Of a DNA stretch of 64,000 nt, positions 10,720 through 56,045 are shown one piece after another. A model generated the notes under the pieces. It was not told where the DNA came from. It saw only the letters and a list, made by a program, of their open reading frames with translations, and made no database searches. The translations under genes and the position numbers were made by a program. The stretch spans positions 64,958 through 128,957 of the forward strand of contig CAVVQQ010000003.1 of NCBI GenBank assembly GCA_963750475.1. Direction: 5' to 3'. Source of the DNA: an uncultured Acidobacteriota bacterium (GTDB taxonomy: Bacteria; Acidobacteriota; Vicinamibacteria; Vicinamibacterales; 2-12-FULL-66-21). Position 1 is the stretch's first letter; each line of letters starts with the position of its first letter.

Positions 10720-10745
10720 CCCGCGGCGCCGAAAGAGAGTTTCGC

Positions 10746-11747: not shown

Positions 11748-11788
11748 GCGCCGCCTGTCGTCGTGACGGTCTGGGGACGGGCCACGGA

Positions 11789-33953: not shown

Positions 33954-34081
33954 GCCCTGTTCAACGGTTCGCGAATTGACGGCGCCGTGGACGTCCCGAC
34001 ATGAGTGGCCGCGCGGAGACGGACGATGAGGGTCCTTTCATACGCCCAGCGCCTGCCGCTGTCAAGAACTTCGCCGTGCGC

Positions 34082-34111
34082 TTGACGGTCATGCAAGTTC
34101 GTGGTTATATC
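34082..34111 (+). promoter_or_regulatory. Candidate sigma70-type promoter upstream of the CydA-like oxidase locus
   Basis: TTGACG (34082-34087), a 17/18-nt spacer, then TTATAT/TATATC (34105-34111). This would give an untranslated leader of about 330 nt before ATG 34444. Confidence 0.3.
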
Positions 34112-34443
34112 GCGCCGCAACCCGAAGAGTCTTCGTTCGTCCCCCTGCGCCGAAAGTCTGGAGAGGCGAGGATGTGGCGTGACCGTTCCATCGCGGACTC
34201 GCGTTCCGGGCAGCTGTTCGCCAGCGCCCCGGAGCCCTCGCCATTGGGCTTCTGTCTGTCCAATCGACGTGGCTACCGGTTCGCGCCGCCTCCTGTCGCG
34301 GCGAAGCCATCCCACCGCTGCCCGTCACCAGGACCGAATCCCGGATCATCCCGACGGGCAGATCGTCGACGACGTCTCGATCACGCCTGGACTGGTGCAC
34401 GGGTCCCGGTGGCCGATCCTTCCCGCGGACAGGAACCGACGCG

Positions 34444-36337
34444 ATGAACCGCAAACCGCTGATCCTTCTTGGCGTCGCCGCCGCACTGCTCACGTTCGCC
34501 GGCACCGCGCTGACCGCCGCGCGGCCGCCGGCCGGCGACTATCTCGAGAGCGATCAAACGGCGGCCGCCGCCCCGGCGCCGGCCGCGGCCGCGCCGGCCC
34601 AGCCCGCCGCCGCCACGCCGGCCCAGCCCGCCGCCGCCACGCCGGCCGCGGACAAGCCGTATGTCGAGGCCGAGTACCCGGCGCTTCCCCGTCGTCGGCA
34701 GCCGCGTCGCCATCTGGATGGTCGCGCAGCTCCATCTGCTGTTCGCGGCGTTCGTTCTCGCGGTGCCGATCTTCGCCTTCATCGTCGAGGCGATCGGCTA
34801 CAAGACCGGCGACATGCGCTACGACCGGCTCGCCCATGAGTTCACGAAGCTGCTGTCGGTCTCCTTCTCGCTGACCGCGACCTTCGGGGCGGCGCTGACG
34901 TTCATGCTGATCATCCTGTACCCGAAGTTCACCAACTACATGATGAGCGTGTTCTCGCCGACCTTCCTGCCCTACGTCCTGCTCTTCTTCGCCGAGGCGT
35001 TCTTCCTCTACACCTACTACTACGGCTGGGGGAAGTTCCATCCGCTGGTCCATCTCGGACTCGGGCTCGGCCTCAACATCGTCGGCACCAGCATCATGCT
35101 GATCGCCAACGCCTGGCTGACCTTCATGATGTCGCCGCGCGGCGTGTCGAGCACCGGGCGCCGTCCTCTCGGTGCGGGAGGCGGTCTACAACTACACCTG
35201 GATGCCGATCAACGTGCACCGCATCATCGCCAACGTCGCCTTCGGGGGATCGATCGCGGCCGCGTACGCGGCGTTCAAGTTCCTCCAGGCGACCACCGAC
35301 GAGGAGCGCGCGCACTACGACTGGATGGGCTACATCGGCAACTTCGTCGCGATCAGCGCCTTCCTGCCGCTGCCGTTTGCCGGCTACTGGCTCGCCAAGG
35401 AGATCTACGCCTACTCGCAGACGCTCGGCCTGCACGATGATGGGCGGGGCGTTCTCGTGGCTGTTCATCATCCAGGCCGTGCTGATTGGCAATCTGTTCC
35501 TCGCCGCCAACTACTATCTCTGGCTCGGCATGGGGCGCGTCGACGGGGTCGCAGCCGCTGCAGCGCTTCATCAAGTATCTGCTCGCCGGGATCACGCTCT
35601 GCTTCATGGTCTGGGCGACGCCGCGATCGATCATCGCGACCGTGTCCGAGCTCCGGGCGATGGGCGGGTCGTCGCACCCGGTCCTCGGCTACCTCGGCGT
35701 CATGTCGGCGAAGAACACCGCCGTGAACATCCTGATCCTCACGACCTTCATGAGCTTTCTCCTCTATCGCCGGACCGGCAAGGTCGCCGCCGTGGCGTGG
35801 GCGAAGAAGGGGCACGCGGCGCAGCTCGCGATCTTCGCCGGCGTCGCCGTCTTCGTCGTCTTTCTCGGCGTCTACGGCTACTTCGTCGAGGCGACGGTCC
35901 GCATCAAGCTGTCGGTGCCGCAGGTCCTCTCGGTCCTGTTCGCGATGGTGGCGATCACCGCCATCGACCTGTTCCTGTTCCGCGGCGCGCGCAAGACCGG
36001 CGAAGTGCGCTGGGGCCGGATTCCGGCGATCTCGCAGTACGTGCTGATCTTCATCGCCGTCACCTTCACCTGGCTGATGGGGCTGATGGGCTACGTCCGC
36101 TCCGGGCTGCGCCAGCACTGGCACGTCTACGGCGTGATCCGCGACAAGTCCGCCGACGCCTTCACGCCGACGCTCGGCTTCGCGACGAAAGTCGTCTCGG
36201 TGACCGTGCTGCTGTTCTTCCTGCTGATCGCCGTCGTGTTCTGGATCGCGAGCCTGCACGACCGGCCCGACTTCGACCGGGGACAGACCGCTCGTGACGC
36301 CGCTCGTCCCTGGACCGCGGCGCAGCGAGCATCATGA
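34444..36337 (+). pseudogene. Cytochrome bd-family subunit I (CydA)-like membrane protein with about 13-14 hydrophobic helices, carrying four frame changes as sequenced
   Basis: Fragments from ORFs 34444.., 34661.., 35172.., 35377.. and 35486..36337 join into one protein. The first join reads ...KPYVEAEYPA|FPVVGSRVAIWMVAQLHLLFAAFVLAVPIF. This is followed by ...ANAWLTFMMSPRG..|GAVLSVREAVYNYTWMPINVHRIIANVAFGG. Next comes ...YAYSQTLGL|TMMGGAFSWLFIIQAVLIGNLF...LWLGMGR|..SQPLQRFIKYLLAGITL... The shifts lie at about 34685, 35155, 35433 and 35545. The helix-1 His motif (QLHLLF) resembles CydA. The stop overlaps the next start (ATGA at 36334). Confidence 0.75.
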
Positions 36338-36879
36338 GGATCCCGCACATCGTCCGCATCGCCGCGCTCGTCTTCGCGACGACCGGGTTCTATGCCTACG
36401 TCGGCCAGATGGTGCCGCAGAAGGAAGTCCAGCCTCCGCAGGAGACCGGCCATGGGCGGCGACCTGAGCCACCGCCGAGCTGGCCAAGATCGGCCGCGAG
36501 ATCATGGAGGGCAAAGGCTTCTGCCTGACCTGCCACACCATCGGCAAGACCGGCGCGCTCCGGTTTCCCGACCTCGCCGGGGTCGATGTCCGCGCCAAGA
36601 CCCGCGTCCCGGGGCTGAGCGATGTCGAGTACTTCGCCCAGTCGATGTACGAACCGACCGCCTACATCGTGCGAAGGCTTTCCCCCGGCGATGCCGCCCA
36701 TCAACAAGCCGCCGATTGGTCTGACCGACGAGGAGATCCTCTCCGTGATCGCGTACCTGCAGACGCTTGGCGGCACCGCGACCGTCACCCTGCAGACGAA
36801 ACATCACTACAACAGCGGACCCGCCGCGGGCGGGACGCCGCCGCCGGCCGCCGCGCCGCCGAAGGGGACGCAGCCATGA
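36334..36879 (+). pseudogene. Membrane-anchored monohaem c-type cytochrome, with two or more frame changes as sequenced
   Basis: The N-terminal anchor is MRIPHIVRIAALVFATTGFYAYVGQMVP. It is followed by ...TAELAKIGREIMEGKGFCLTCHTIGKTGALRFPDL...SDVEYFAQSMYEPTAYIV|EGFPPAMPPINKPPIGLTDEEILSVIAYLQTLGG. The haem motif is CLTCH, and MPP provides a distal Met. The shifts lie at about 36440-36470 and about 36672. The stop overlaps the next start (ATGA at 36876). Confidence 0.7.
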
Positions 36880-37695
36880 AGATCGCCGTCCTCGTCGCCA
36901 TCCTCGCAGTCTTCGCGCTGCTGCGGTTCCGGCGCGCGAACCTGCTGCTGTGGGCCGGCGCCTGGTGGATCGGGATCTACGTGCTGCTCCGCTTCGGCTT
37001 CACCGCGCCGATTCCCTCCTCCGTCGTCACGCTCTACATGGGCATCATTTCGATTGCCCTGCTCGCCTACGTCTCCTCCAGCGAGGTACGCCGCGACGAG
37101 GTCTCGGGTCCGCTGGTCAGGTTCATGACCGACAAGCGCTACACGGTCCTCCTCGGCGTCGCCATCGTCGCCATCCCGGCGCTCGCCGCCGCCAATGTCT
37201 ACGTCCAGATGAGCGTCCCGCTGCAGCCGCCGCTGTTCTCGCGCACGGTCCATCCCGCGTCGCCGTCCGAGATCACGGTCCACGACAAGAAGGTCGAGCT
37301 CGACGCCGGCGAGAACCCGTTCCGCCGCCTCGAGACGTCGAACCCGGCCGAGTTCCGCACCCACGTCGAGAACGGACGCCGCGTCTTCTACCGGAACTGC
37401 GTGTTCTGCCACGGCGACAATCTCTCCGGCAACGGCATGTTCGTCCACGGACTCGATCCGATCCCGACCAACTTCACCGACAAAGGGACGATCGCGATGC
37501 TGCGCGAGACCTACCTGTTCTGGCGGATTTCCAAGGGGGGACCCGGGCTGCCGGAGGAGGGCGGGCCGTGGGCTTCGGCGATGCCGGCCTGGGAGAAGTT
37601 CCTGAAGGAAGACGAGATCTGGGATGTCGTCCTCTTTCTCTACGACTATACCGGCCAGCGGCCCCGCGCGAAGGAGGAGGGGGCGAAGCCGATGA
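36876..37695 (+). CDS. Polytopic membrane-anchored monohaem c-type cytochrome (3' boundary unresolved)
   Basis: The start is ATG 36876. About four hydrophobic helices begin MKIAVLVAILAVFALL.... The soluble domain carries CVFCHGDNLSGNG...MPAWEKFLKEDEIWDVVLFLYDY. No stop exists in this frame before 38078. A TGA in the adjacent frame at 37693 overlaps a well-placed ATG 37692 (GGAGGAGGGGG upstream). I therefore place the end near 37695, assuming one more indel. Confidence 0.6.
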
Positions 37696-39414
37696 CGATC
37701 CCCTGGACGCCTGGTGGTCATGGTGGCGGCGCTCTGGGCCGCGCCGGGAGGATCGATGCGCGTGGCGGCGCAGGACGTCGGCACCGAGGCCCAGCGCGAG
37801 TCGGGCCGGAAGCTGTATCTCAAATCCTGCTCGCAGTGCCACGGCGAAAAAGGGGACGGCGAAGGATACGCCGCCCCGCATCTGCGTCCGCGGCCGCGGA
37901 ATTTCACGACCGGCAAGTTCAAGATCCGGACCACGGCAAACGGCGCGCTGCCGACGCATCAGGACCTGGTCAACATCATCAGACGGGGAATGCCGTACAC
38001 CTCGATGCCAGCCTGGCCGAGCCTTGCCGATCAGGAAGTGTCGGATCTCGCGTACTTCATCACCACTTTCTCACCTGACTTCGCCAAGCCCGAGAACGCT
38101 CCCAAGCCGGTGCCGCTTCCCGGCGCGCCGAAGGCGACGACGGAGTCTGTAGCGCTCGGAAAGAAGCTCTACGAGGAGAGCGGCTGCGTGAAGTGCCACG
38201 GCGCGCTCGGCCGCGGTGACGGGCCGTCGGCGCCGACCCTGATGGACGACTGGGGGCACCCGATCCGCGCCGCCGATCTGGCGCAGAGCTGGACCCTGCG
38301 GGGCGGATCTTCCCGCGAAGACATTTTCCGGACGATGAGCACGGGGCTGAACGGCACGCCGATGCCGTCGTTTCTCGAAGCGCTGACGCCGGAGCAGCGC
38401 TGGGCGATCACCGATTTCATCGTCTCGCTCTCGGGCGGCGACGGCCCTGGCTACGCCAATCTGGTCATCGCCAGGCACGTGAAGACGCCGATCGATCTCG
38501 GCAAAGGCGCCGCGAGCTTTGCTGACGCGCCGGTCGCACGGTTTCCGGTCGTCGGCCAGATCATGGAGCCGGGACGATCGTTCCATCCGCCGGCGACGAG
38601 CGTCGCCGTCCAGGCGGTCTACGACGCCGACTCGATCGCCCTGCTGGTGCGCTGGCACGACATGAGCGCGGAAAAGTCCGGGAAGAACGGGCCGTCGCTG
38701 CCGGTGCCGGCAGAGGAAGAGGAGGAGCCGGCGGCGGCCGCGGCGGCGGGCGAGGGGAGCAGTGCGGGCGGCTTCGGCGACGCGGAGGTCGCGGCGACGC
38801 CGGCCGGACAGGCGCCGGCGCCCGCCGCGGACCCCTTCGCCGAGGCCGTCCGCGCCAGCTGCGCCGCCATCCGAGTTCTCCGACGCTGTCGCGATCCAGG
38901 TGCCTTCGCAGGCCCTCGACCGGTGCGCGCAAGCCGTACTTCCTCTTCGGCGACGGCGAGAACCCGGTCGATCTCTGGTTCTTCGATCTGGCCGGCGCGG
39001 CGCCGCTGCAGTTCACCGGGCGGGGCAGCGGGGCCGTCGACAGCCGCCGCCGCGACCGATGTCACCGGAACCGCGAGCTACGACCAGGGGGAATGGTCGG
39101 TCATTTTCAAGCGGCCCCTGCGCGCCGGCGCGCGGCGCTCCGTTCTCGCCCGGGAGAGTTCGTGCCGATCGCCTTCTCGGTGTGGGACGGCTTCTCGCGC
39201 GAGCGCGGCAACAGGCGCGGCCTCACGACCTGGTACTCCCTCTATGTCGAGCCGGCAGTGGTGCCCTCGCCCGATCGGCCCGATGGTGAGGACGGCGGTG
39301 ATCATTCTGGTCATCGAGCTGGCGGTGATCGGCTGGGTGCGCAGGCGCTACGGATCGCGCGACCAAGGAAAGCTCGGCGCGGCGCCGAGCCACCCGGCAG
39401 CGACCGGCGCGTGA
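37692..39414 (+). pseudogene. Dihaem c-type cytochrome fused to an EB_dh (ethylbenzene-dehydrogenase gamma / DOMON-like haem-binding) domain with a C-terminal membrane anchor, carrying about seven frame changes as sequenced
   Basis: The haem motifs are CSQCH and CVKCH (ORF 37714..). The EB_dh-like segment is spread over all three frames. It reads ...SVAVQAVYDADSIALLVRWHD... / PSEFSDAVAIQVPSQAL / KPYFLFGDGENPVDLWFFDLAG..LQFTGRGSGAV / TGTASYDQGEWSVIFKRPLRAG / APFSPG / EFVPIAFSVWDGFSRERGNRRGLTTWYSLYVEPAVVPSP / IGPMVRTAVIILVIELAVIGWV. The shifts lie at about 37705, 38860, 38928, 39040, 39130, 39155 and 39260. Confidence 0.7.
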
Positions 39415-39510
39415 GCGCGCCGGGAGCGAGCGACGTGAACCGCCGCCGCCCCAGGGCGGCCGGGGCCGGCCAGGGCGGCGGGACGAAGTCCGCCGATGAA
39501 AAGAGGACCC

Positions 39511-41620
39511 ATGTACAAGAGCATCTACGTTCCCGTCGATAACTCAGACCACTCCAACCGCGCCGTCGCCTGCGCCGTCGGGCTGGGCAAGGCGTATTCG
39601 GCGAAGCTGGTCGGCTGCCATGTCTACGCCGCCAAGCTGCACGACTACCGCTTCAGGCAGATGGAGTACACGCTGCCCGAGGAGTACATCGACGAGGTCG
39701 AGCTCGAGCGGCAGCGGAAGATCCACGACAGCCTGATCACGATGGGCCTCAAGCTGATCTCCGACAGCTATCTCGACGGCATGTCGCGGCTGTGCGGAGA
39801 GTCGGGCCTCGAGTTCGAGCCGCGGATGATGGACGGGAAACATCACATCGAGATCCTCAAGGACCTCGCCGGCTCGGCGCACGATCTGGTGGTGCTCGGC
39901 GCGCTGGGAATCGGCCGCGCCCGCGACAGCGTGATCGGCTCGGTCTGCGAACGGGTCGCCCGCGAGGCCGATCGCGATGTCTGGGTCGTCAAGCACGTCC
40001 CGGAGCCGGGCGAGGCGGACCGGGACACCATCCTGGTCGGCGTCGACGGCAGCCCGCAGTCGTTCGGCGCGCTGATGACGGCCTCGATCTGGCCCGCACC
40101 TTCGGCAAGAAGGTCGAAGCGATCGCCGTCTACGATCCCTACCTGCATTACTCGGTCTTCAACGGCATCGTCGGCGTCCTCACCGAGCAGGCGGCGAAGG
40201 TCTTCCGCTTCGAGGAGCAGAACCAGCTCCACGAGGAGATCATCGACACCGGGCTGGCGCAGATCTACCAGTCGCACCTCGAAGTGGGCGAGCGGATGGC
40301 GAGCGAGGCGGGCGTCGAGATCAAGAAGACGCTTCTCGACGGCAAGCCTTTCCAGAAAATTCTCGACCACGCGCGCAAGACCAACCCGTGGCTGATCGTC
40401 GTCGGGCGGATCGGCGTGCACAGCCCGAAGGACGAGACCGGGCTGGGGAGCAACACGGAGAACATTCTCCGCGCCGCGCCCTGCGATGTCCTCCTGTCGA
40501 CGCGCCTCGAGGTGCCGCGCCTCGACGTGCGCGCCGAGGAGACGGTGCGGTGGACGCCCGAAGCCGAGGAGCGGATGACGCACGTGCCCGAGCAGGTCAA
40601 GGGGATCGCCCGCACCGGCGTCCTCCGGCTGGCGCTCGAGAAGGGGCATTCGGTGGTCACGAGCGCGGTGATTGACGAAGCGATGGATCGGTTCATGCCG
40701 AAGAGCGCTTCGGCGGCGACCAAGGCGCTGGCCGAGGCGGTCGCGCTCGAGCGGGCGAAGGCGGGCCCGGTCTCGATGTGCCGGGCCTGCGGCGTCACTG
40801 CCACGCAGAGCGGCGCCGGTGCGGTGCATCGTCTGCGGCGCCGACCGACTTCGAAGTGATCTCGCGCGAGATGATCGAGAAGATCGCCGAGGTCGAGGGC
40901 GGGCTCCAGGAGGAGACGACCTACGACGGGCGCAAGCTGCGGTGGTCGGAGGACGCCCGGAAGGGCCTGTGGACGATGAAGAACGCCTATCAGCGGCGCC
41001 GCACCAAGGCGCGCGTCGAGAAGCGCGCGCGCATGAAGAAGCTCGACGCGATCACGCTCGATTTCGCCCGCGAGGTGATCGAGGAGGAGACGGGCACGCC
41101 GCTCGACATCGTGGCTCAGGGGGCCTTGACCTCGTCGGCCGCCACATCGGCGTCGCCCGCCGGGACGCCCGCGTCGGGCTCCGCGCCGGCGCCAGCGGCC
41201 TCTGACGGCGTGAAGCTGGTGGCCCGCGACGAGCGGAAGAACCCGCTGATCTCGATCTTCGACTGGACCGACGAGGCGACGCAGCGGATCTTCCGCGTCC
41301 CGGCCGGCTTCATGCGCAGCCAGACGCAGGAGCGGATCGAGGCGCTCGCGCACGAACGCGCCGCGGCTGGCGGCACTGGCGAAGCCGGAGTGGTGATCGA
41401 TCTGGCGCTCGTCGAGGACGGGATCGAGATCGGCAAACGGATGATGGCCGAGATGATCGCGAACTACCCGTCAGCGGGCCAGGGGCACGAGAAGGCGGCG
41501 CCCGCTGCAGCGGGTCACTCCTCCTCGGCGTCGACCGCGCCCGCACAGGAAGCGCCGGCCGTGAACGGGAGCGGCTACCTCAACGAAGTGAGCGCGCTCT
41601 CGGCGCGGCGCGTCGAGTGA
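39511..41620 (+). pseudogene. Multidomain protein: tandem universal-stress (Usp) domains, a CxxC...CxxC zinc-ribbon and three PCP_red-like domains, with three frame changes as sequenced
   Basis: The start is probably ATG 39511 (MYKSIYVPVDNSDHS). Usp1 is ...LVVLGALGIGR...SVCERVAREADRDVWVV. Usp2 is ILVGVDGSPQSFGALMT|GLDLARTFGKKVEAIAVYDP...LIVVGRIGVHS...GSNTENILRAAPCDVLL. The PCP_red-like units are VRWTPEAEERMTHVPEQVKGIARTGVLRLALEKGH, LRWSEDARKGLWTMKNAYQRRRTKARVEKRARMK and FDWTDEATQRIFRVPAGFMRSQTQERIEALAHER. The zinc ribbon is MCRACG...RCIVCGA. The shifts lie at about 40080, 40815 and 40838. Confidence 0.7.
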
Positions 41621-41742
41621 CTTCATCAGCGCGTAGCAAGCGTCCGTGGAGCGAACCACGTCGGCAGGGTCAGGCTGGCGCGCCAGCGGCGCGCCGCGCC
41701 GGAGCGGAGCGGGGCGCAGGGGCCCCCGCGAGCGACGGCGAG

Positions 41743-41768
41743 GGGGGGCCGGCGGGGCGAAGCCCCCC
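41743..41768 (+). terminator. GC-rich hairpin followed by an A/T-rich tract (weak terminator candidate)
   Basis: The stem GGGGGGC pairs with GCCCCCC across a 12-nt loop (cggcggggcgaa), and the hairpin is followed by GGTAAATAAAT. It sits between the Usp/PCP_red gene and the GNAT gene. There is no canonical U-tract. Confidence 0.25.
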
Positions 41769-41777
41769 GGTAAATAA

Positions 41778-42654
41778 ATGTCCGCCTACCGGTTCTGTCG
41801 CTCGGACGACATCGGCCTGCTCGTCGATGCGCTGAATCGCTGCTGGTCGCCGTCTTTTCCCGACGAGCCGGCGATGACGCCGGCCGCGTTCAAGCGATCG
41901 ATCCGCGACCTTCAGGTCTGGTGCAGCAGCTGCATGGTCGCCTTCGCGGGCTCCGATCCGATCGGCGTCCTGATCGGCGCCAAGCGGCCGTCCGGAACCC
42001 TCGTCCACAAGATCGCCGTTCATCCGGAGCATCAGCGCCAGGGCCATGCTCGCCACATGCTCGATTCGCTCGGCGTCGAAGCTCGCGATTCTCGGCCCGC
42101 CGCGAATCAGCGCCGAAGTGCCGGAAGCCCTCGTGCCTGCCTGCGGCGGGCTGTTGCGCGCCAGCGGATTCGTCCAGGAAGCGCGCCTGACCGACTACGT
42201 ACTGCAGCATGACAATCGCGGCGATGATGAGGCCGCAGGCATTCCCGCCGGCCGGTTCGTCATCCCGGTGACCCTTGACGATCTCGCCGCCAATGGCCTC
42301 TCCGCCGAGGCTGATACCCAGGTCTGCTGGGAGCGCGCGGTCGACACCCTCATCGCGCGGAAGGAGGAGATTGCCGGGCTCGCCGTCGCCTCGGACGAGC
42401 GAATCGAGGCCTGCCTGCTGTACGTGACGCACGGGGCGGCGGCGGAGATTGTCTCGCTGCGTACCTTCATCGACGATGGCGGAGCTCGTGTGAAGCAGCT
42501 GCTCTCACGACTCGGCGCCCGGGGAATCGGCACGTTCCGCTTCCCGAAAGTGCGCCCGCCGGAAATCTCCGAGGACTGGCTCGAGACGCTCGGCTTCCGC
42601 CCCGCTGGCGGGCATCGACTTTACGCGACGACGGCGCGATCGGACCATGCGTAA
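41778..42654 (+). pseudogene. GNAT-family N-acetyltransferase (two-lobed), with one frame change as sequenced
   Basis: ORF 41778.. and ORF 42046..42654 join at ...VHKIAVHPEHQRQGHARHMLDSL|..SKLAILGPPRISAEV... (shift about 42065-42075). HQRQGHARHM fits GNAT motif A (Q/R-x-x-G-x-A/G). Confidence 0.6.
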
Positions 42655-42693
42655 GCTGGCGATTGTTCGAACGACGGCAGTCCCGGGCAGGAA

Positions 42694-43658
42694 ATGAAAA
42701 CCTACAGCGACATCGTTGGCGACGGCGGGTCCAGGGTGCTCGAGCAGGTGGCCGAGCAGCGCGCCCGCATCACGGACGGGCTCGCCGGAGTGCGCCATCT
42801 CGTTGCCGTCGGCTCCGGCAAGGGGGGCGTCGGCAAGAGCACCCTGACGCTCCATCTCGCCGGTGCCCTGCGCGCCCGGGGACTGCGCGTCGGGATCCTC
42901 GACGCCGACTTCAACGGTCCGTCGCAGGCGCGCATGGCCGGCGTCCAGGAAGGGCTGTTCGTTCCAGGCCGCGACAAGGTGGCGCTGCCGCGAACGAAGA
43001 ACGGCATCCCGGTCTTCTCGATGGGCTCGATGATCCCGGAGTCGGAGGCGCTCGAGTTCGAGAGCACGGCGCCCGGCGAGTCGCAGACCTGGCGCGCCAC
43101 CCGGGAGTTCGCGCTCCTCGGCGAAATCCTCGGGGCCTTCGAGTGGGGCGCGCTCGATCTGCTGATGTTCGATCTGCCGCCCGGGAGCCGAGCGGACCGT
43201 CCAGTACGCCGACTTTCTCGGGCCGCGGACCTCGTTCCTGCTCGTCACCATCCCCTCGGAGGTATCGCGAGGCGTGGTCGCGCGCTCGGTGGCGGCGCTG
43301 GCGAAGGGACCCAACCGGGTCCTCGGCTACGTCGAGAACATGAGCGGCTACTACTGCCGCGACTGTAACGCCGTCAAGCCGCTGTTTGCCTCGGCTGGAT
43401 CCGAGGATGCGGCAGGCGGCGCCGTCCCGCCGACCTCGCGCCAATCCCGGCTCGAGATTCCCTGCCTCGGAACCGTCCCTTTCGATCCCGAGCTGGCACG
43501 GTCACTGCGATACAGGGCTGCCGCTCGCGGACGTCCCCGACAGCCCGGTTGGCCGGGCCCTGGAGCGCGTCGCGCAGCAGCTTCTGGACAGCCTCGAATC
43601 TCCTCCGCCTCCGCTCCCGCTCCGCGCGAGCTTCGGCTCGGCAAGGAGCTCGCGATGA
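42694..43658 (+). pseudogene. Mrp/NBP35 (ApbC)-family iron-sulfur cluster carrier ATPase, with two frame changes as sequenced
   Basis: The deviant Walker A is VAVGSGKGGVGKSTLT. Further segments are ILDADFNGPS, DLLMFDLPPG|AERTVQYADFLGPRTSFLLVTIPSEVS, and the CxxC motif in ENMSGYYCRDCN. The protein continues ...GTVPFDPELAR|..CDTGLPLADVPDSPVGRALERVAQQL. The shifts lie at about 43185 and 43500. The stop overlaps the next start (ATGA at 43655). Confidence 0.85.
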
Positions 43659-44144
43659 AGTTCCTCTGTGTCCCCTGCGACAGTCCGATGAAGCTGCAGA
43701 CCGTCGAGCCCGCCCGAGGGCGGCTCGCTGTCGGTCGTCTATGCCTGTCCCGAGTGCGGCTACGAGATGGCGATGCTGACCAACGCCGTACGAGACGCAG
43801 CTCGTTCAGTCGCTCGGCGTGCGCATCGGGCCCGACATCGCCGGCGGAGCGCTGGCCGGGGCAGCGGCCGAGCCTGGCAAGTGTCCGTTCCCCGGGATGA
43901 TCTCGTCCGCGGCCCCGCAGCCCACAGGCGCCAACGGGGCGACGGAGGAAGGGCGCCCCGGGCCAGACCGACGATCCGAGCCCGGTCCGCTGGACCGACG
44001 CCGCCGAGGCCCGGCTCGCGAACATTCCCGCCTTCGTGCGGCCGATGGCGCGGACCGGCATCGAGAGGTACGCGCGCGAGAGAGGGGTCGCAGGAAGTGG
44101 ACGAGACCATCCTCGACGCGGCCCGCGACTTCTTCGGCATGTAG
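43655..44144 (+). pseudogene. Small zinc-ribbon plus PCP_red-domain protein, with four frame changes as sequenced
   Basis: The sequence reads MKFLCVPCDSPMKLQTVEP|..GGSLSVVYACPECGYEMAMLTN|..YETQLVQSLGVRIGPDIAGG...KCPFPGM...|VRWTDAAEARLANIPAFVRPMARTGIERYARERGV|.EVDETILDAARDFFGM. Successive pieces lie in frames 2, 0, 1, 2, 0 (position mod 3). All four shifts are +1, at about 43712, 43788, 43955 and 44092. Confidence 0.6.
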
Positions 44145-44207
44145 GCTGCGTTCCTGCGCGAGTCCACACGGATCTGCGCGGATTTGCACGGATTGACACC
44201 GGTCTGA

Positions 44208-45671
44208 ATGGCTGCACCGATGAACGCGACCCCGTTCGCCCGACCGTACGTCATCTCCTGGAACCTCACCTACCGCTGCAACCTTGCCTGCGAGCACTGC
44301 TATCTCGACGCCGGCGGCGCGCCACAGGTCGGCACCGAGAACTTCGCCGATCGGAGCGAGCTCGGCACCGAGGAATGCTTCAGGGTGATCGACGACATCG
44401 CCGCGTTCGCGCCCGAATGCGTGACGATCCTGACCGGCGGCGAGCCGCTCCTGCGCCGCGACATCCTCGAGATCGTCCAGCGCGCCGCGGAGCGCGGGCT
44501 CTGGGTCGTCGTCGGCACCAACGGCGTGCGCATCACGGAGAACCGTGGCGAAGCGACTGGCCGATGCCGGCGCGCGCGGCCTCTCGCTCTCTCTCGACGC
44601 GCTCGATCCCGATCGCCACGACCGGTTCAGGAACGTGCGCGGCGCCTGGCGGAACACGGTCGAGGGTGCGGAGATCCTCAACCGGACCGGGCTCCCCTTC
44701 ATCGTCCAGACGACCGCGGGCTCGCACAATCTCGGCGAGCTCGACGCCATCGCCGACTTCGCGCACGACCGCCTTGCCGCGAAGGTCTGGAACCTCTACT
44801 TCCTCGTACCGACCGGGCGCGGCCAGTTCGTCTCCGACATCACCCCGGCGCAGTACGACGACGTGCTGGCGTCGCTCTACCGGATCCAGCGGAAGTACGA
44901 CCGCCGGATGCTGGTCAACGCGAAGTGCGCACCGCACTACATCAAGACCGTACTCGAGCGCGCCCGCGGCCTGGGCGAGGGGCCGGAGGGTAGTCCCGCG
45001 GAGCGGGACCCCCGAGCGAGCGGCGGTGGCACCCGCGAGCACCGGAGGATGCCGGGCAGGCTCCCGGCCCGCCCTCGATCAGGACCTACTCCGGAGGGGC
45101 CGGTGGATGCCCGGCGGGAACGCACTACATGGGGATACGGCCGAACGGCGATGTCACCCCCTGCCCGTATCTGCCGGTCTTCGCGGGTACCCTTCGCAGC
45201 GCCAGTCTGCGGACCTGTGGACATCATCGGCGCTGTTTGCCGACATCCGCCGCCGCACCGCGCTCGGCGGCCGCTGCGGGGCGTGCGAGATGAACGGCCA
45301 CTGCGGCGGCTGCCGCGCCCGGGCGTACGGGATGACCGGCGATGTGATGGCCGAGGATCCACTCTGCACCCACATCCCCGGCACGTTCGCCGGCTCGCCG
45401 CTGCTGGCAGTCCGCGGCGCGTCCCCGGCGCCGGTCGGGCGGGACGAAGCGCCGGCCAGTGCGGGAGATCCAGTACGGTCCCGAATCGCCTCGGGCGATT
45501 GCGTGGGACGATGCCGCGGCGGCGCGCATGAAGAGGATCCCGGTGTTCGTCAGGGGCATGGTCACCACGGCCGTAGAGGAGTCCTGCCGCAAGAGCGGCC
45601 TCGACCGCGTCACCGTCGAGGAGCTCGACCGCATCCGCGCGCGGATGCCGACCCCGAAGATTTTCGGGTGA
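44208..45671 (+). pseudogene. Radical SAM / SPASM-domain enzyme (AhbD/NirJ-like tetrapyrrole-modifying type) with a C-terminal PCP_red domain, carrying five or more frame changes as sequenced
   Basis: The radical SAM cluster motif is NLTYRCNLACEHCY. Further segments are ILTGGEPLLRRDI, VVVGTNGVRITEN|.AKRLADAGARGLSLSLDALDPDRHDRFRN and ...VWNLYFLVPTGRG...NAKCAPHY. The SPASM-like part is GCPAGTHYMGIRPNGDVTPCPYLP...LWTSSALFADIRRR...GRCGACEMNGHCGGCRARAY...DPLC. The final domain is IAWDDAAAARMKRIPVFVRGMVTTAVEESCRKSGLDRVTVEELD (ORF 45459..45671). The shifts lie at about 44540, 44960-45100, 45198 and 45455. Confidence 0.8.
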
Positions 45672-45688
45672 GGCTGGATCTGAAGGGG

Positions 45689-47240
45689 ATGACTGCAATC
45701 CTGCAAAGCGCCCGAAGCGCGACAGCCCTGACGCTGATCGTGCTGGTGTGCACGGCGACAGTTGCCAGGTCGCACGGTCCGGCGGATTCCGATGCCTCGG
45801 GCGCGTCAGACAGCGCCACCGTGCCACTCGCCCCGGGCGGGGCGATCGACTCACCCGGGCCGGGCAGCGTCGTTGGCCCGTATTTCACGGTCACCGGGTG
45901 GGCGATTGAGGCTGCCGCGTCGACCGGGACAGGCGTCGACGGCGTCTATCTTTGGGCGTACCCGGCGTCCGGCGGATCAGGCATACCTCTCGGGTGGGCC
46001 GACTACGGCCGCACCCGACCCGATGTTGCCGACCAGTCCGGCCTCCGGTTCAGCAATTCGGGCTATTCGCTCGCCACCGGCATCGTCAATCCCTCGGGCT
46101 CGTACACCATCGTTGCCTACGTTCACGACACAGCGGCCGGGGGCTTCCATCAGCAGCAGGTTGTGACGGTCACGACCCAGCAGGACGCCCGGGGCGCCAT
46201 CGACCCGCCGGCGGGCGGTTTCACCGTCCCGCCGGCGTTCGCGCTGACTGGATGGGCGATCGACACCGGCGGTTTCGGGTCAGGCGTCGACGGCGTGTAC
46301 TTGTGGGCGTTCCCCTTCTCCGGCGGGGCGCCTTTTCCCGTCGACACAGCGGCCACGTATGGGCTGGCGCGGCCGGATGTGGCGTCGCAGGTACGGCAGC
46401 CGGTTCAGGAATTCGGGCTACAGCATCAACGTGGCGAGCCTGGCGCCCGGCAGGTACGTTCTCGTTCCGTTCGCCCATCCGACCGTCGGCGGTTTCGTTC
46501 AGACGCAAAGTGTCGTGGTGGAAGTGCAACTCCGTCCGCACGGGGCGATCGATTCACCCGGCCCGGACAGCGTGATCGGCCCGTGGTTCACGGTTACCGG
46601 ATGGGCGATCGAGTCCGGCGCGTCATCGGGCACGGGCGTGGACGGCGTTTACATCTGGGCGTATCCGTCCGGGGGTGGAGCCGGCATACCACTCGGGTGG
46701 GCCGACTACGGAAAGACACGACAGGATGTGGCCGGCCGGTACGGCAGCCGCTTTCTCAACTCGGGCTATTCGCTCGCCACCGGCATCGTCAATTCCTCTG
46801 GCTCGTATACCATCGTTGCGTACGTTCACGACGCACTCGCCGGAGGCTTCCATCAACAGCAGGCCGTGACGGTCAGGAAACAGCAGGATCCCCGGGGAGC
46901 GATCGATCCGCCGGCCGGCGGTTTTGCGGTCTCACCGTCTTTCACGCTTACTGGATGGGCGATCGACGCCAACAACCAACTCCCGGGTCCGGGCGTCGAC
47001 GGGGTCTATCTGTGGGCGTTTCCAGTTTCGGGCGAGCCACCTTTCGCGGTCAATTCATCCGCCGCGTATGGACTGGCCCGTTCGGACGTGGAGTCGCAGT
47101 ATGGCCCGTTCTTCAGGAATTCCGGCTACAGCGTCACTGTCTGGAACCTGCCCGCGGGCGTCTACGTCCTCGTTCCGTTCGTCCATGAGAGTCCGGGCGG
47201 CTTCTTCCGGACCCAGAGCGCCGTCGTCACGGTGCGATAG
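45689..47240 (+). pseudogene. Secreted protein made of four tandem ~115-aa beta-sandwich-like domains (A-B-A'-B'), with one frame change as sequenced
   Basis: The start is ATG 45689, followed by a signal peptide (MTAILQSARSATALTLIVLVCTATVA). The repeating pattern is GAIDxPxxGxxVxxxFTxTGWAI...GVDGVYLWAxP...YGxxRxDVxxxxGxxFxNSGYS...GxYxxVxxxH. The frame of ORF 44036.. joins ORF 46359..47240 near 46390 (...RPDVASQ|YGSRFRNSGYS). Confidence 0.7.
45838..47240 (+). repeat. Coding tandem duplication, two units of about 705 bp
   Basis: Unit 1 starts near 45838 (GGGGCGATCGACTCACCCGGGCCGGGCAGCGTC...). Unit 2 starts near 46543 (GGGGCGATCGATTCACCCGGCCCGGACAGCGTG...). By eye the units show long runs of identity, for example GGGTGGGCCGACTACGG and TCGGGCTATTCGCTCGCCACCGGCATCGTCAAT, interspersed with substitutions. 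Confidence 0.8.
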
Positions 47241-50219: not shown

Positions 50220-50918
50220 CTACCGCTCCATCACCGGCAGGGAAAATTCGACCCGCGCCTCTTCCCCGGCGGCAACCGTCACGGAGCGAGTCGTCTCGCC
50301 GATCCGCTCGTGCCATGCGCTCAACCGGTAGGTGCCGGCGGGGACGGCCTCGATCGCGAAGCGCCCATCGCCGCCCGGCGTCGCGTAGAGGCGGTGGTCG
50401 AACACCATGATCGTGGCGGCCATCTCCGAGTGGATGTGGCAGTAGACTTTGATGACCCCGGCGCGCGGAAACGTCCGTTCGCGCTTGTCGCCGCTCCGGA
50501 ACCGCCCGAGGTCGAAGGTGGCGCCGCGCGACAGCGAGAACACGTTGTGGAAGTAGGGGTCGAAGTTCGGGAACTCGATGGTGGAGTCGCGGGTGATGGC
50601 GGTGACCCGCGGCACGAACGCCTCGTCGCGCTGGCTGATCGAGGCACGGGTCGCCGGAAGGTTCGTCTGGCGTGGCGCGTCCTTGACGAACACCACGACG
50701 TTCGCGATCTCGGCTGCCGCCGGCGTCGTGCGGTTGACCTGCCGCGAGGGGTAGGCCCCCGAGCGCAGCGGTGTGCCGGACAGTGCCGTCAGGTGCACGA
50801 GGCCGGTGATGCGTCCGTAGGGCTGAGCCACGCGGCCCACCGCCGGCTGCGCCACGGCGAGCGTGCAGGTGACGGCCACCAGGGCCAGCACCGGTCGAAA
50901 TGACACACGGAAAAACAT
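50220..50918 (-). CDS. Secreted cupredoxin-like (amicyanin-type ligand pattern) protein with a C-terminal beta-sandwich (paralog 1)
   Basis: The start is ATG 50918, followed by a signal peptide. The type-1-copper-like ligand pattern is FHNVF...YCHIHSEM (H...C-x2-H-x2-M). The C-terminal segment is DGRFAIEAVPAGTYRLSAWHERIGE. The stop abuts the HD-GYP start with a 0-nt gap. Confidence 0.6.
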   Translation of the reverse strand: MFFRVSFRPVLALVAVTCTLAVAQPAVGRVAQPYGRITGLVHLTALSGTPLRSGAYPSRQVNRTTPAAAEIANVVVFVKDAPRQTNLPATRASISQRDEAFVPRVTAITRDSTIEFPNFDPYFHNVFSLSRGATFDLGRFRSGDKRERTFPRAGVIKVYCHIHSEMAATIMVFDHRLYATPGGDGRFAIEAVPAGTYRLSAWHERIGETTRSVTVAAGEEARVEFSLPVMER

Positions 50919-51169
50919 AATCGTAATTACTTCCCCTGATCCAGGGGGTTCCGGCGGCCGTGGTGCCGATTGCGTGCCAGGGGGAGCCCGGCACGCGCCA
51001 CGGCCCGCACACACACGCCGCGGACATCGTTCGGGCAGTCGAGGGATCGAGGGCGGGCGGCGGGAGAATCAATACGGGTCGACGGTCGGCTGCACGGCTT
51101 GGTGATCGCCCCCGGGCCGGGTCGGCGCGGGTGAACCCCTGGACCGGGGACGGTCCCAGGGGAACGAGG

Positions 51170-51715
51170 TCACTTCGACCAGGGGGGGACGACGCCGTTC
51201 ATCCGCGCGTATGCGATGGACTGTCCCATGTGCTCGTTGTCGTGCAGCAGGATCCGCAGGAAGATGCCTTCGGCGGTGGTTTCCGTTCCGAAGAACTGCA
51301 CCGTCCTCTGCCGGTCCGCGCTTGGGTAGCCCTGGGCGACGGCGTCCAGCGACTTCCTGAGCCAGCCGATTACCTCCGGCTTGCTGGAGACGCTTTTCTC
51401 GGGATTCTTCGGCAGCGTCGACATGTCCACTGCCGGCTTGACGCCGGCCTGTTCGAGCAGCCAGAAATTCCCGAGCGCCAGGTGCATGTAGACCTCGCTG
51501 ATCGAGCGGACGCCGGGCGCGGGGCGCCAGCTGAATTTCCCGGCCGGCGTGGCCTCCGCGAGTGCCAGTAGCTGACGTGAGGTCACGGTGAATTCCGGCA
51601 GCCACCCGTGTCCGAGTTCCGGCGGCTGCGTCTGTGCGACCGCCGGGCCGGGCGCGAGCAGGAGTCCGCAGGCGAGCAGGACGACGACCGCCAGCGGGAA
51701 TGTCGGTTTCTGCAT
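51170..51715 (-). CDS. Secreted DinB-family protein (paralog 2)
   Basis: The likely start is ATG 51715 (MQKPTFPLAVVVLLACGLLLA signal). The sequence reads ...KFSWRPAPGVRSISEVYMHL...LLHDNEHMGQSIAYARMNGVVPPWSK. It shares the same C-terminal motif as 20231..20803. Confidence 0.75.
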   Translation of the reverse strand: MQKPTFPLAVVVLLACGLLLAPGPAVAQTQPPELGHGWLPEFTVTSRQLLALAEATPAGKFSWRPAPGVRSISEVYMHLALGNFWLLEQAGVKPAVDMSTLPKNPEKSVSSKPEVIGWLRKSLDAVAQGYPSADRQRTVQFFGTETTAEGIFLRILLHDNEHMGQSIAYARMNGVVPPWSK

Positions 51716-51913
51716 GGATGTGCTCTCCGTGATGGATTCTGTCGGCGTCATCCGGCCAGCGCTTCGAGCAGATCCGGCGGGGATCCGCGTCACGCTGGCG
51801 ACGCCAGACGCGCTCTATCGTCTGAAGCGGAAGACCGTCCGGCCCCTCGATCGGCAGGACGCCGCGGCGCTGCGGGAGCGCTTCGGACTCGACGGAGGAG
51901 ACTGACCGGCTGA

Positions 51914-51939
51914 CCGTCCGCGGTTGACCCGCGGGACGG
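51914..51939 (-). terminator. Strong GC hairpin just downstream of the oxidase subunit II gene (terminator candidate)
   Basis: CCGTCCGCGG (51914-51923) pairs with CCGCGGGACGG (51929-51939). This gives 10 bp with one bulge and a 5-nt loop. It lies 19 nt past the ctaC stop codon. There is no U-tract. Confidence 0.35.
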
Positions 51940-51957
51940 GAACGAAGCAGGCGCGGG

Positions 51958-52759
51958 CTATCGGAAGATGTCCGATTCTCCCTTGAGCTTCTCTTCTTCG
52001 TCCGCCATCCATTTCTGGAACTCCTCGGCGGTCTGGACGGTGACGAAGCCGCGCATCCGGTAGTGGCCGAGGCCGCAGAGCTGGGCGCAGGCGATCTCGT
52101 ACTGGAACTCGGCGTTCCCCGTCCGGGCCCGCATCTCCTCGGTCGTGACGTCGGGAACGAACCAGATGGGGATCGTCAACCCGGGGACGGCGTCCTGCTT
52201 GACGCGAAACTCCGGCACGCCGAAGCTGTGGATGACATCCTTGCTCCGCAGCCTGACGATCACCGGCTGGTTGACGGGCAGATAGAGCTGATTGAGCGTC
52301 GTGATGTCGTCCTTCGCCGGCGGGATCCGAGCGGTCGAGCCCGAGCGGGTTGGTCTGGAGGTCGATCAGGCTGATGTCCGTCCGGCCGAACGTCCCGTCC
52401 GGCCCGGCATAGTGGACGTTCCAGGCGAACTGCTCGGCGGTGACCCGAACGACCAGCGCCTCGCTCTCCGGCGGCATGCGGTCGACGCGCGCCGCCCAGA
52501 GCGGGACCGAGAACGCGAACAGGAGAATCGCTTCGATCACGGCGACGCCAATCTCCGAATAGCTCGAAGCGTGCGACTTGACGCCGGTGTAGTCCGCCAC
52601 CGGGTGGCGCGATCGGCGGAAGCGGAACAGGATGTAGGCGAGGAACGCTCCCCAGCCGACGAACAGGATCAGCATGAACACGTGCATCCAGCCGATCAGG
52701 CTGTCGATCTGCGCGCCGTGAGCCGAGGCGAGCGGCGGGAGTCCGAGCCATTCAGTCAT
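51958..52759 (-). pseudogene. ctaC: Haem-copper (aa3-type) cytochrome c oxidase subunit II with a CuA site, with one frame change as sequenced
   Basis: ORF 51815..52897 and ORF 51958..52263 join at ...LGLDRSDPAG|KDDITTLNQLYLPVNQPVIVRLRSKDVIHSFGVPEF (shift about 52320). There are two TM helices. The CuA ligands are in HSF...CAQLCGLGHYRM. The start is taken at ATG 52759 (MTEWLGLPPLASAHG), but the frame stays open upstream. Confidence 0.85.
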
Positions 52760-53562: not shown

Positions 53563-53567
53563 GCCGC

Positions 53568-54164: not shown

Positions 54165-54236
54165 TCACCGAGGGGCTGTGCCCCTCGGACTCCCCGGCAC
54201 GCGCCCGCGCTCGCTGACGGTTTCTGCATAAGCTCC

Positions 54237-56014: not shown

Positions 56015-56045
56015 GCAGCTGTTCTCCCGACGTCTGGTTCGAGGG

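Follow-up and report, generated by a model that had tools for sequence, protein, structure and literature searches.

Conserved linkage of a predicted OR-N2 cytochrome bd-like operon with genes for an AhbD-like radical SAM enzyme and PCP_red proteins in an uncultured Vicinamibacterales bacterium

A stretch of 64,000 nucleotides from an uncultured member of the Acidobacteriota (Vicinamibacterales; 2-12-FULL-66-21; assembly GCA_963750475.1, contig CAVVQQ010000003.1, positions 64,958-128,957 of the forward strand), hereafter called the window, carries at 34444-47240 a same-strand gene array in which a CydA-like membrane protein and three c-type cytochromes are followed by a block of PCP_red domain proteins that includes an AhbD-like radical SAM enzyme. 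Comparison of this array with related loci (given L-numbers below) revealed that the two halves are linked in several phyla, and it is this linkage, and its possible meaning for haem supply to a respiratory complex, that is described here.

The window has a G+C content of 68%, and a frame plot of G+C at third codon positions (GC3) revealed that the coding frame jumps every few hundred bases within evident proteins. Approximately 25 such breaks, 19 of +1 nt and six of +2 nt, lie within the 12.8 kb of 34444-47240 and affect every gene; they were placed by combining the GC3 plot with a codon-usage Viterbi path and tblastn of clean homologues. Since GC3 stays high throughout, in-frame stops are entirely absent, identity to intact homologues is held at 75-95% on either side of each break, and the downstream haem-copper oxidase genes at 52-56 kb (COX2 and COX1; 51961-56100) are broken in the same manner, the breaks are taken as sequencing or assembly noise and not as decay. 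The contig appears to be an unpolished, noisy assembly, and annotation based on open reading frames (ORFs) therefore fragments most genes of the window. For this reason the plain ORF list, which held fragments only, was replaced by the Viterbi stitch, verified against clean homologues.

Stitching yielded ten plus-strand genes (G1-G10), where a first-pass annotation made from the sequence alone had counted eleven; the discrepancy arises from G10, which is a single frame-shifted gene. The ATGA start/stop overlaps that this annotation had placed at 36334 (G1/G2), 36876 (G2/G3) and 43655 (G7/G8), and its three gaps exceeding 50 nt (39415-39510, 41621-41777 and 44145-44207), were verified on the sequence, and all of the domains it had named were recovered by Pfam on the frame-corrected proteins. 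An Rfam scan of the region returned nothing and a promoter scan no promoter-like sites, while terminator-like sites were as frequent in the region as in shuffled sequence, with none on the plus strand within the intergenic gaps. The first nine genes are as follows.

34444-36337, plus strand: G1, predicted OR-N2-type CydA-like subunit (Cyt_bd_oxida_I 3.7e-24, profile positions 2-241 of 418 only; four frame breaks)
36334-36879, plus strand: G2, membrane-anchored monohaem cytochrome c (CLTCH; Cytochrom_C 2.7e-6; one CxxCH)
36876-37709, plus strand: G3, four transmembrane (TM) helices by hydropathy and a C-terminal monohaem cytochrome c (CVFCH; Cytochrome_CBB3 4.4e-9)
37714-39414, plus strand: G4, dihaem cytochrome c with an EbdC-like haem-b domain and a C-terminal TM anchor (Cytochrom_C twice, EB_dh 5.6e-15; five frame breaks)
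39511-41620, plus strand: G5, two Usp domains (4.1e-38), a Zn ribbon and three PCP_red domains (Pfam 4e-15), with Ala/Pro-rich linkers
41778-42654, plus strand: G6, GNAT acetyltransferase (Acetyltransf_1 1.7e-7) with an uncharacterised C-terminal half
42694-43658, plus strand: G7, P-loop Fe-S carrier of the Mrp/NBP35/ApbC type (ParA (NUBPL) 9.1e-51, 173 bits)
43655-44144, plus strand: G8, small Zn-ribbon protein (CVPC...CPEC) with PCP_red (3.9e-17) and an NCBIfam match to the BchB C-terminus
44208-45671, plus strand: G9, AhbD-like radical SAM/SPASM protein with a disordered linker and C-terminal PCP_red (Radical_SAM 3.3e-24, SPASM, PCP_red 6.6e-13)

The likeness of G1 to CydA is confined to its N-terminal part: PDB CydA chains align to the N-terminal helices only, ending at approximately residue 320, and the score with the NCBIfam bd-II model is 22.7 bits, its cut-off being 1025. 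The protein consists of an N-terminal anchor, an Ala/Pro-rich linker and then, by prediction, some 14 helices, and possesses neither a Q-loop nor a CxxCH motif; over its four frames it is 84-94% identical to clean Vicinamibacterales homologues (tblastn). The helix number, which the first-pass annotation had put at about 14, fits both the hydropathy profile (12-13 TM segments at a strict threshold) and the DSSP string of a low-confidence AlphaFold2 model of a homologue, in which 14 long helices follow the anchor. The models of the G1 and G9 homologues, obtained from 26 close sequences, reached a pLDDT (predicted local distance difference test score) of just 40 and 45, respectively, and only their DSSP strings were used, cautiously. 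In keeping with the earlier description of a CydA-like subunit without cydB or cydX, a CydB domain (Cyt_bd_oxida_II) was absent from all ten genes by Pfam; the window holds no second CydA-like gene, and the related loci hold one each. With its partial match, missing Q-loop and missing CydB, G1 does not qualify as a canonical quinol-oxidising CydA.

The OR-N family comprises CydA homologues that lack the quinol site, and its OR-N2 members have 14 helices and signature residues listed in Table S6 of the defining study, the supplement of which describes OR-N2 operons containing several c cytochromes and an EbdC homologue (bioRxiv 10.1101/2021.01.16.426971). G1 carries these residues with the spacing of the reference (reference residues in brackets): H97 (H19), Y177 (E99), E184 (E107), Y191/Y193 (F114/F116), H258 (H186), M419/N423 (M393), S552 (E445) and W558 (W441). 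The positions are near-invariant among 11 sequences from four phyla, with the exception of N423 and of S552, serine not being among the residue types scored. The three c-type cytochromes, one with an EB_dh domain, that had been noted from the sequence are also in place, with one, one and two CxxCH motifs in G2, G3 and G4. G2 is conserved behind G1 in other phyla. The stop codon of G3 is destroyed by a frame break; its homologues end at approximately 37690, and tblastn of 272-aa homologues spans 36876-37682. A clean homologue of G4 matches the NCBIfam models DMSO_red_II_gam (1.2e-20) and EbdC (1.4e-8), and the EB_dh domain is of the DMSO-reductase type II gamma kind. Because the signature residues, the N-terminal-only CydA match, the probable number of about 14 helices and the c-cytochrome/EbdC gene content coincide, we assign G1-G4 by sequence to the OR-N2 'cytochrome bd-like' operons, a described but biochemically uncharacterised family.

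The closest described systems are those of the NIDE0901 type (Luecker 2010/2013; Murali, Gennis and Hemp 2021), which share with G1-G4 a CydA-like protein lacking Q-loop and CydB, the signature residues and the c-cytochrome/EbdC operon, and whose 14 helices G1 probably has as well. The same 14-TM 'bd-like oxidase' is encoded in the nitrite oxidoreductase (NXR) clusters of Nitrospina, Nitrospira and Kuenenia, where its function was called enigmatic and a role like that of alternative complex III was suggested (PMC3578206), while a 2025 survey treats OR-N2 as the presumed terminal oxidase of Nitrospirales, of unknown O2 affinity (PMC12342949). In contrast to the published cases, the host here belongs to the Vicinamibacterales and not to the Nitrospirota, and no OR-N1 partner is present. 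Nor do the published descriptions of OR-N2 mention the Usp-PCP_red, radical SAM or Mrp genes that come after G1-G4 in the window.

The second half of the array is marked by PCP_red units, of which a local hidden Markov model (HMM) finds five in three proteins, as had been annotated: three in G5 (residues 340-396, 473-524 and 581-616) and one each in G8 and G9. This helical unit of about 45 residues is homologous to part of BchB/ChlB, the subunit of dark-operative protochlorophyllide oxidoreductase (DPOR), with Pfam E-values of 1e-13 to 1e-17 and NCBIfam matches to BchB positions 457-535. DPOR structures have the C-terminal segment of BchB covering protochlorophyllide. The match of the PCP_red proteins to the BchB models is limited to the last ~55 positions, at 35-39 bits against cut-offs of 490-912, and the nitrogenase-like BchN/BchB/BchL parts are not present here; these proteins are thus not members of the BchB/ChlB family. 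Unlike in BchB, PCP_red here is joined in one protein with radical SAM, Usp or Zn-ribbon modules, occurs in organisms that are not phototrophs and reaches up to three copies per protein. The Usp motif of G5 is of the ATP-binding type (G-x2-G-x9-G-S), and the protein has more than 4000 homologues, the best at 80-88% identity. Thousands of homologues of G1, G5 and G9, 80-93% identical, occur in soil metagenomes and, where labelled, derive from Vicinamibacterales/Acidobacteriota. G7 has the motifs expected of Mrp/NBP35/ApbC proteins, namely a deviant Walker A (GKGGVGKS) and a CxxC (CRDC at residue 221), although its NCBIfam scores for MrpORP (147 bits) and ApbC (109 bits) both lie under the cut-off. 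As for G6, the GNAT domain that had been thought to complete the block is present, but its family (cluster C14) is limited to L001, L002, L005, L008 and L017, that is, to Vicinamibacteria and the metagenome-assembled genome (MAG) of L008, and it is a lineage-specific addition.

G9 has the radical SAM motif CX3CX2C as CNLACEHC at residue 23, and in a family member, P0131, the SPASM cysteines at positions 298, 316, 354, 357, 363, 366 and 384 are invariant, as the motif of AhbD demands. The first-pass annotation had called the enzyme AhbD/NirJ-like, and the best-scoring curated NCBIfam models are indeed AhbD (TIGR04545; 289 bits, cut-off 500) and NirJ2, which is AhbD-type (278 bits), followed by TIGR04053 (272 bits, cut-off 395); all of these scores lie below cut-off. 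Other members tested, a Vicinamibacterales paralogue and proteins from Bacteroidota and Nitrospira, reached 311-343 bits against AhbD/NirJ2 (AhbD 311-322 in other phyla), and in four of the four family members tested these two models exceeded all peptide-maturase models by more than 130 bits. The closest solved structure in the PDB is PqqE. A search of 1.84 billion representatives revealed that the radical SAM-SPASM-PCP_red architecture is kept down to ~40% identity, with PCP_red found in 26 of 30 diverse representatives. In a neighbour-joining tree the radical SAM-PCP_red proteins are sister to AhbD of the Desulfovibrio type, and they group separately from the AhbD-like proteins of that type and of archaea, which are without PCP_red. 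From scores, architecture and tree, G9 is predicted to be a member of an uncharacterised sister family of the haem synthase AhbD.

The family shares with AhbD (NirJ2) the CX3CX2C radical SAM core and the Cys-rich SPASM domain, and a G9-type gene is also found without the other Ahb genes (in some loci with an adjoining HemY), as reported for AhbD, which is present in coproporphyrin-pathway organisms that lack the other Ahb enzymes (review, PMC13564367). It differs from AhbD in scoring 289-343 bits against a cut-off of 500, in forming a separate clade, in its added linker and C-terminal PCP_red, in having a paralogue in one locus, in the company of Usp-PCP_red and often of Zn-ribbon-PCP_red and Mrp, and in its place in respiratory operons of mostly aerobic or microaerobic phyla. 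The paralogue is found in L017 (Vicinamibacterales) at 10004-11299, between G4 and G5, and is 41% identical to the G9 type; the usual G5-GNAT-Mrp-G8 come after it, and there the contig ends. A role as NirJ in haem d1 synthesis was considered and rejected, as G9 scores 161 bits against a NirJ cut-off of 515 and no nir genes occur among the recurrent neighbour clusters.

In order to examine the gene neighbourhood, one genome per GTDB species was scanned with an alignment of radical SAM-PCP_red proteins (a first family alignment of 30 sequences was too diverse for the locus scan, and a smaller one was used), the window genes were mapped onto 80 loci, and neighbours within 10 kb were recorded. As a control, 37 plain AhbD-like loci from Desulfobacterota, archaea and other groups were treated alike. 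G5 proved the most constant partner of the radical SAM gene, occurring near it in 32 of 44 radical SAM-PCP_red loci as opposed to none of the 37 controls (Fisher p = 9e-13), followed by Mrp (19/44 versus 0/37, p = 1e-6) and by G1-G4 (9/44, or ten with L008, the contig of which starts in G3, versus 0/37, p = 3e-3). A metagenome scan from the opposite side, using a G1 alignment, returned 80 OR-N2 loci, 16 of them informative in that at least 3 kb of contig lay past G4. G5 and/or the radical SAM gene were present in 13 of these 16, both of them in seven, with the module on the opposite strand in one.

G1-G4 and the radical SAM gene occur together in Vicinamibacteria, a 'Deltaproteobacteria' MAG, Gemmatimonadota (L028, L033, L034), Rhodothermales (L029), Bacteroidota (L041) and Nannocystaceae (L053), amounting to four to five phyla, among them Acidobacteriota, Gemmatimonadota, Bacteroidota and Myxococcota. 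At least four gene orders are represented, including G1-G4-G5-GNAT-Mrp-G8-rSAM, Mrp-G8-ABC-G5-rSAM-G1-G4-C3-COX and COX-G1-G4-rSAM-C47-G5-Mrp-G8, where rSAM denotes the radical SAM gene and C3 and C47 are neighbour families described below. In the gemmatimonadotal L028 and L034 the stop codon of the radical SAM gene overlaps the start of G1, and in L053 the genes for C3, the radical SAM enzyme, C47 and G5 abut or overlap each other. The linkage of G1-G4 with the radical SAM-PCP_red gene is thus conserved and independent of gene order, and it is reciprocal, because it was found from the radical SAM side and from the G1 side alike. The first-pass annotation had named a lack of synteny in every related genome as the mark of two unrelated operons brought together by chance; since the linkage recurs and is reciprocal, that mark is not seen.

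At the level of phyla, all 11 phyla with radical SAM-PCP_red proteins are among the 27 OR-N-positive phyla of ~150 (Table S3, Murali), including Poribacteria, Nitrospinota and Methylomirabilota, which lack qOR1 and OR-C. This overlap is suggestive only, because large phyla contain everything. All three lineages known for 14-TM bd-like proteins, namely Nitrospira, Nitrospina and the anammox bacteria (PMC3578206), have radical SAM-PCP_red proteins.

A number of further observations were made at these loci. C47, a protein of 245-311 aa without a Pfam or NCBIfam match, always stands directly after the radical SAM gene in loci of the Bacteroidota, Rhodothermales and Nannocystaceae types (L029 6477-7214, L041 11268-12044, L053 10023-10958; also L084, L101 and L150), and is a candidate for a further component of the module. 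In the Gemmatimonadota, an ABC ATPase and an ABC-2 permease are encoded between G8 and G5 (L028 5466-7282, L034 5867-7761), in a layout reminiscent of haem export of the CcmAB/CydDC type. The likeness to CydDC/CcmAB lies in the idea of dedicated haem delivery to a bd- or c-type cytochrome and is an analogy only: the window has no CydDC or Ccm homologue, and the carriers proposed here would be soluble PCP_red proteins. L005 (CAYNUO010000021.1), labelled 'uncultured Bifidobacteriaceae bacterium', is 66-81% identical, gene by gene and in the same order, to the Vicinamibacteria cluster, and is probably mis-binned.

The two halves of the array are nonetheless separable. Within the Vicinamibacteria, G1-G6 form one unit and G7-G9 another, and the distance between the two varies: they are adjacent in the window, L005 and L008, and have 2.7-3.7 kb of inserted genes between them in L001 and L163. 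Elsewhere the G5 and radical SAM core keeps other company. In Methylomirabilota it lies between an aa3 oxidase/CtaA/CtaB cluster (COX1-CtaA-CtaB-COX3) and Mrp, and CtaB, CtaA and COX1-3 are found nearby in several phyla. A HemY-type proto/coproporphyrinogen oxidase (TIGR00562, 237 bits, cut-off 98) overlaps or abuts the radical SAM gene in L035 and L040, both from alphaproteobacterial MAGs, and stands between G4 and G5 in L008; members of its family (cluster C15) are present in L037 and L039 too. The idea that the radical SAM enzyme substitutes for the O2-dependent haem A synthase CtaA was rejected, given that CtaA adjoins it in the Methylomirabilota locus. In L035 and L040 (~1400-12700) the order is an AioA-like molybdoenzyme (Rieske_3 and Molybdopterin), a 750-aa HEAT-repeat protein, C3, (an FGE-sulfatase-like protein), Usp-PCP_red, radical SAM-PCP_red and HemY. 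In Nitrospira/Nitrospirales (L023, L024, L026 and L044) a UbiE-type methyltransferase and a B12-binding radical SAM enzyme are encoded just upstream of G5, a quinone-methylation-like pair with perhaps no relation to the haem module. Downstream of the Usp-PCP_red/radical SAM pair, L021-L024 and L026 encode a CopD-like 4-TM protein; an identification of the 4-TM neighbours in Nitrospira and Poribacteria as HemJ was rejected, the matches being weakly CopD-like, with UPF0093 at 22 bits (under the cut-off) and NCBIfam CopD at 40 against 195.

Upstream of G1 the window differs from its relatives, retaining what corresponds to the end of a single gene.

34278-34433, plus strand: cytc0 remnant, the last ~52 codons of a monohaem cytochrome c gene that in relatives stands before the CydA-like gene

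By tblastn, the corresponding cytochrome c proteins of L001, L005 and L017 match here at 46-50% identity, the match being confined to residues ~73-185. Among relatives with an intact locus, namely L001, L002, L017, L163 and a large number of metagenome loci, G1 is preceded by genes for an ActA-like protein (QrcA-like, multihaem (pentahaem)), an ActB-like protein of 1031 aa (QrcB+QrcC-like) and the monohaem cytochrome c, whereas neither ActA-like nor ActB-like proteins match anywhere in the window (tblastn). What is left suggests that the 5' edge of the operon (34038-34443) has been deleted, rearranged or misassembled. The relatives recall alternative complex III (ActABCDEF), with which they share the ActA-like, ActB-like and monohaem c genes upstream and an aa3-type operon alongside; in them, however, the NrfD-type ActC/ActF are replaced by the CydA-like protein, and canonical ActCD and ActF are present in L005 beyond the oxidase operon. 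The window itself lacks ActA/ActB-like genes and, judged by ActA, ActB and NrfD-like ActC/ActF, is not an alternative complex III locus.

We lean, with moderate confidence, towards an interpretation of the array as two coupled units: an OR-N2 complex (G1-G4, 34444-39414) and a cytoplasmic module for O2-independent making and handling of haem (G5-G9, 39511-45671). Haem is suggested as the subject of the second unit because AhbD/NirJ2 are the top-scoring models, PCP_red is homologous to BchB, and HemY, CtaA, CtaB and COX genes are among the neighbours. From the domain content, the family placement and the conserved reciprocal linkage, we infer a substrate, a reaction and its product, a role for PCP_red and a direction of electron flow as follows. 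The CydA-like subunit, which keeps the haem ligands and part of the CydA proton channel, would exchange electrons with periplasmic c-type haems, and the complex could either reduce O2 or connect to the quinone pool in the manner of alternative complex III. G9 would most likely decarboxylate propionate side chains of an iron tetrapyrrole oxidatively and without O2, the simplest case being the conversion of coproheme to haem b (AhbD chemistry). The PCP_red units of G9, G5 and G8, tethered by long disordered linkers, may hold or pass on the tetrapyrrole; Mrp (G7) would load the [4Fe-4S] clusters of G9, and the Usp domains of G5 could provide nucleotide-dependent control. The module would feed haem to the adjacent complexes, OR-N2 with its at least seven haems and the aa3 oxidase, and would perhaps be most important when O2-dependent haem synthesis is limited.

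Several observations weigh against this proposal. G9 does not reach the AhbD equivalog cut-off and, because it scores 289 bits where 500 are required, is not an AhbD equivalog; its substrate could be another tetrapyrrole. The second paralogue in L017 hints at more specialised or two-step chemistry, and embedding in OR-N2 operons is not expected of a housekeeping haem synthase. G7-G9 lie more than 10 kb from G1-G6 in L003 and L004, and no CydA-like gene was detected, even by HMM, within 10 kb of the G5 and radical SAM core in Nitrospira, Nitrospina, anammox bacteria, Poribacteria, Methylomirabilota and several proteobacterial MAGs.

Some of these points are better accommodated if the radical SAM, PCP_red and Mrp proteins form, in a strict sense, a dedicated pathway for a modified haem or cofactor of the OR-N2 CydA-like protein, for example its high-spin active-site haem, instead of a general supply of haem b. 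The position of the radical SAM gene inside G1-G4 operons with stop/start overlaps, in Gemmatimonadota and elsewhere, the PCP_red genes in 13 of 16 OR-N2 loci, the score of G9 under the AhbD cut-off, the second paralogue of L017, and the distribution of radical SAM-PCP_red, which is restricted to OR-N-positive phyla and includes all lineages known to have 14-TM bd-like proteins, all speak for such a pathway; moreover, no enzyme is known to make the haem d of bd oxidases. However, the core lacks a CydA-like gene in Methylomirabilota, amid aa3/CtaA/CtaB and Mrp genes, it accompanies HemY and an AioA-like molybdoenzyme in the alphaproteobacterial MAGs and unrelated genes in Nitrospira and Poribacteria, G1-G4 are within 10 kb in just 9-10 of 44 radical SAM loci, and nothing shows an unusual haem in OR-N2, so that we hold the idea only tentatively and judge it unlikely. 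Its boldest form, in which the AhbD-like radical SAM enzyme, the PCP_red proteins, the tandem-Usp protein and Mrp constitute an unrecognised cofactor pathway dedicated to the 14-helix OR-N proteins, making or inserting a non-standard haem at the active site, seems to us a shade more doubtful still; if true, it would account both for the way the module tracks OR-N in Acidobacteriota, Gemmatimonadota, Bacteroidota and Myxococcota and for its presence in Nitrospira, Nitrospina and anammox bacteria. The first-pass annotation had likewise envisaged enzymes that tailor the haem of the oxidase, a suggestion upheld as far as an AhbD-like radical SAM gene is linked to the oxidase genes, but too strongly worded, as the core also stands beside haem-copper oxidase/CtaAB genes, beside HemY, or without a CydA-like gene.

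A separate issue, compatible with either understanding of the second unit, is whether G1-G4, together with the ActA/ActB-like proteins of the relatives, form an alternative-complex-III-like quinone:cytochrome c oxidoreductase that feeds the aa3 oxidase or runs in reverse. ActA/ActB-like genes stand directly before cytc0-G1 in L001, L002, L017, L163 and ~10 metagenome loci, some 15 further loci, in which the contig start cuts them off, show the ActB-like gene and cytc0, and G1-G4 share a same-strand array with COX2/COX1/COX3 in L028, L034, L041, L101 and L119. The missing Q-loop and the replacement of E99 by Tyr agree with such a function, which Luecker et al. proposed for the 14-TM bd-like proteins (PMC3578206). 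On the other hand, the equivalents of H19, H186, M393 and E107 are kept as in O2-reducing CydA, recent literature takes OR-N2 to be the probable terminal oxidase of Nitrospirales (PMC12342949), a quinone site cannot be recognised, and the ActA/ActB-like genes are absent from the window; an oxidoreductase of this kind is a possibility to be borne in mind, albeit a rather unlikely one. It is improbable that the radical SAM/SPASM enzyme matures something other than a tetrapyrrole, be it a peptide, a protein residue, or Fe-S/molybdopterin-like subunits of the ActB/AioA type with Mrp as Fe-S donor. Maturation of peptides or proteins is the task of many SPASM enzymes, PqqE gives the best match in the PDB, molybdopterin-type proteins are near in some loci (ActB-like in Vicinamibacteria, AioA-like in alphaproteobacteria) and Mrp is linked in 19 of 44 loci, but the AhbD/NirJ2 models score more than 130 bits above the peptide-maturase models, the other known setting of PCP_red is a tetrapyrrole enzyme, the neighbours include HemY, CtaA and CtaB, a small conserved ORF that could encode a precursor was not seen, and most radical SAM loci are without ActB-like genes. 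Finally, a chance juxtaposition of two or three operons, or a decaying locus with real frameshifts, might be read from the splitting of G1-G6 and G7-G9 by inserts in L001 and L163 and their distance in L003 and L004, from the ~25 frame breaks and from the truncated gene upstream of G1. We reject both as very improbable on the recurrence of the linkage and the intact coding signal: linkage is reciprocal in four to five phyla with varied gene orders and absent from all 37 controls, and the breaks extend across the window, including COX1 and COX2, with GC3 periodicity intact, no in-frame stops and 75-95% identity flanking them.

The first-pass annotation had presented the array as an undescribed module. 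This does not hold for the respiratory half, which matches the described OR-N2 operon, but the conserved association of OR-N2 with radical SAM/PCP_red genes was found in no paper of the literature searched. By sequence, then, the respiratory genes are of a described kind and the radical SAM/PCP_red module would be an uncharacterised variant of the AhbD family. The OR-N 'bd-like' proteins, biochemically uncharacterised as to activity, electron partners and cofactors, are presumed terminal oxidases in Nitrospira; Nitrospina and anammox bacteria encode them within their NXR clusters, and they abound in soil Acidobacteria. The genetic link to an AhbD-like enzyme and PCP_red proteins offers an experimental handle on the identity, assembly and haem supply of the OR-N complex. 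It also brings to light a large uncharacterised sister family of AhbD, a testable function for PCP_red outside photosynthesis and, possibly, a way for widespread aerobic and microaerobic phyla to complete haem synthesis without O2. Thousands of database entries name G1 'cytochrome ubiquinol oxidase subunit I', and some G9 homologues are named 'AdoMet-dependent heme synthase'; the family tests justify neither of these labels.

The remaining features in and around the region are as follows.

45689-47240, plus strand: G10, one frame-shifted gene for a secreted protein (signal peptide) with four ~117-aa repeats and no Pfam match
50232-56813, minus strand: aa3-type haem-copper oxidase operon (tblastn of L004 and L005 proteins), composed of a C3 paralogue, COX2 (51961-52792), small subunits, COX3 (53571-54151), COX1 (54240-56098) and C3 (56052-56813), the parts being placed by tblastn

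G10 sits between the radical SAM gene and the haem-copper oxidase operon. Its repeats begin at residues 51, 169, 285 and 403 and follow an ABAB pattern (GAID[SP]P...GWAI...GVDGVY.WA.P); with no tblastn match in 160 related loci, it was rejected as a component of the system. The flanking genes are on the minus strand and unrelated, comprising ThuA/EF-hand and DUF4440 genes upstream, and a gene without assignment and an HD-GYP gene downstream. An operon of this aa3 type is also met next to OR-N2/radical SAM genes in other phyla, its gene families adjoining G1-G4 and the radical SAM gene in L028, L034, L041, L101 and L119. C3 is a CarboxypepD_reg-like periplasmic protein with His/Cys motifs, two paralogues of which flank the aa3 operon of the window; it recurs in 14 related loci beside COX genes or G4, and may handle copper.

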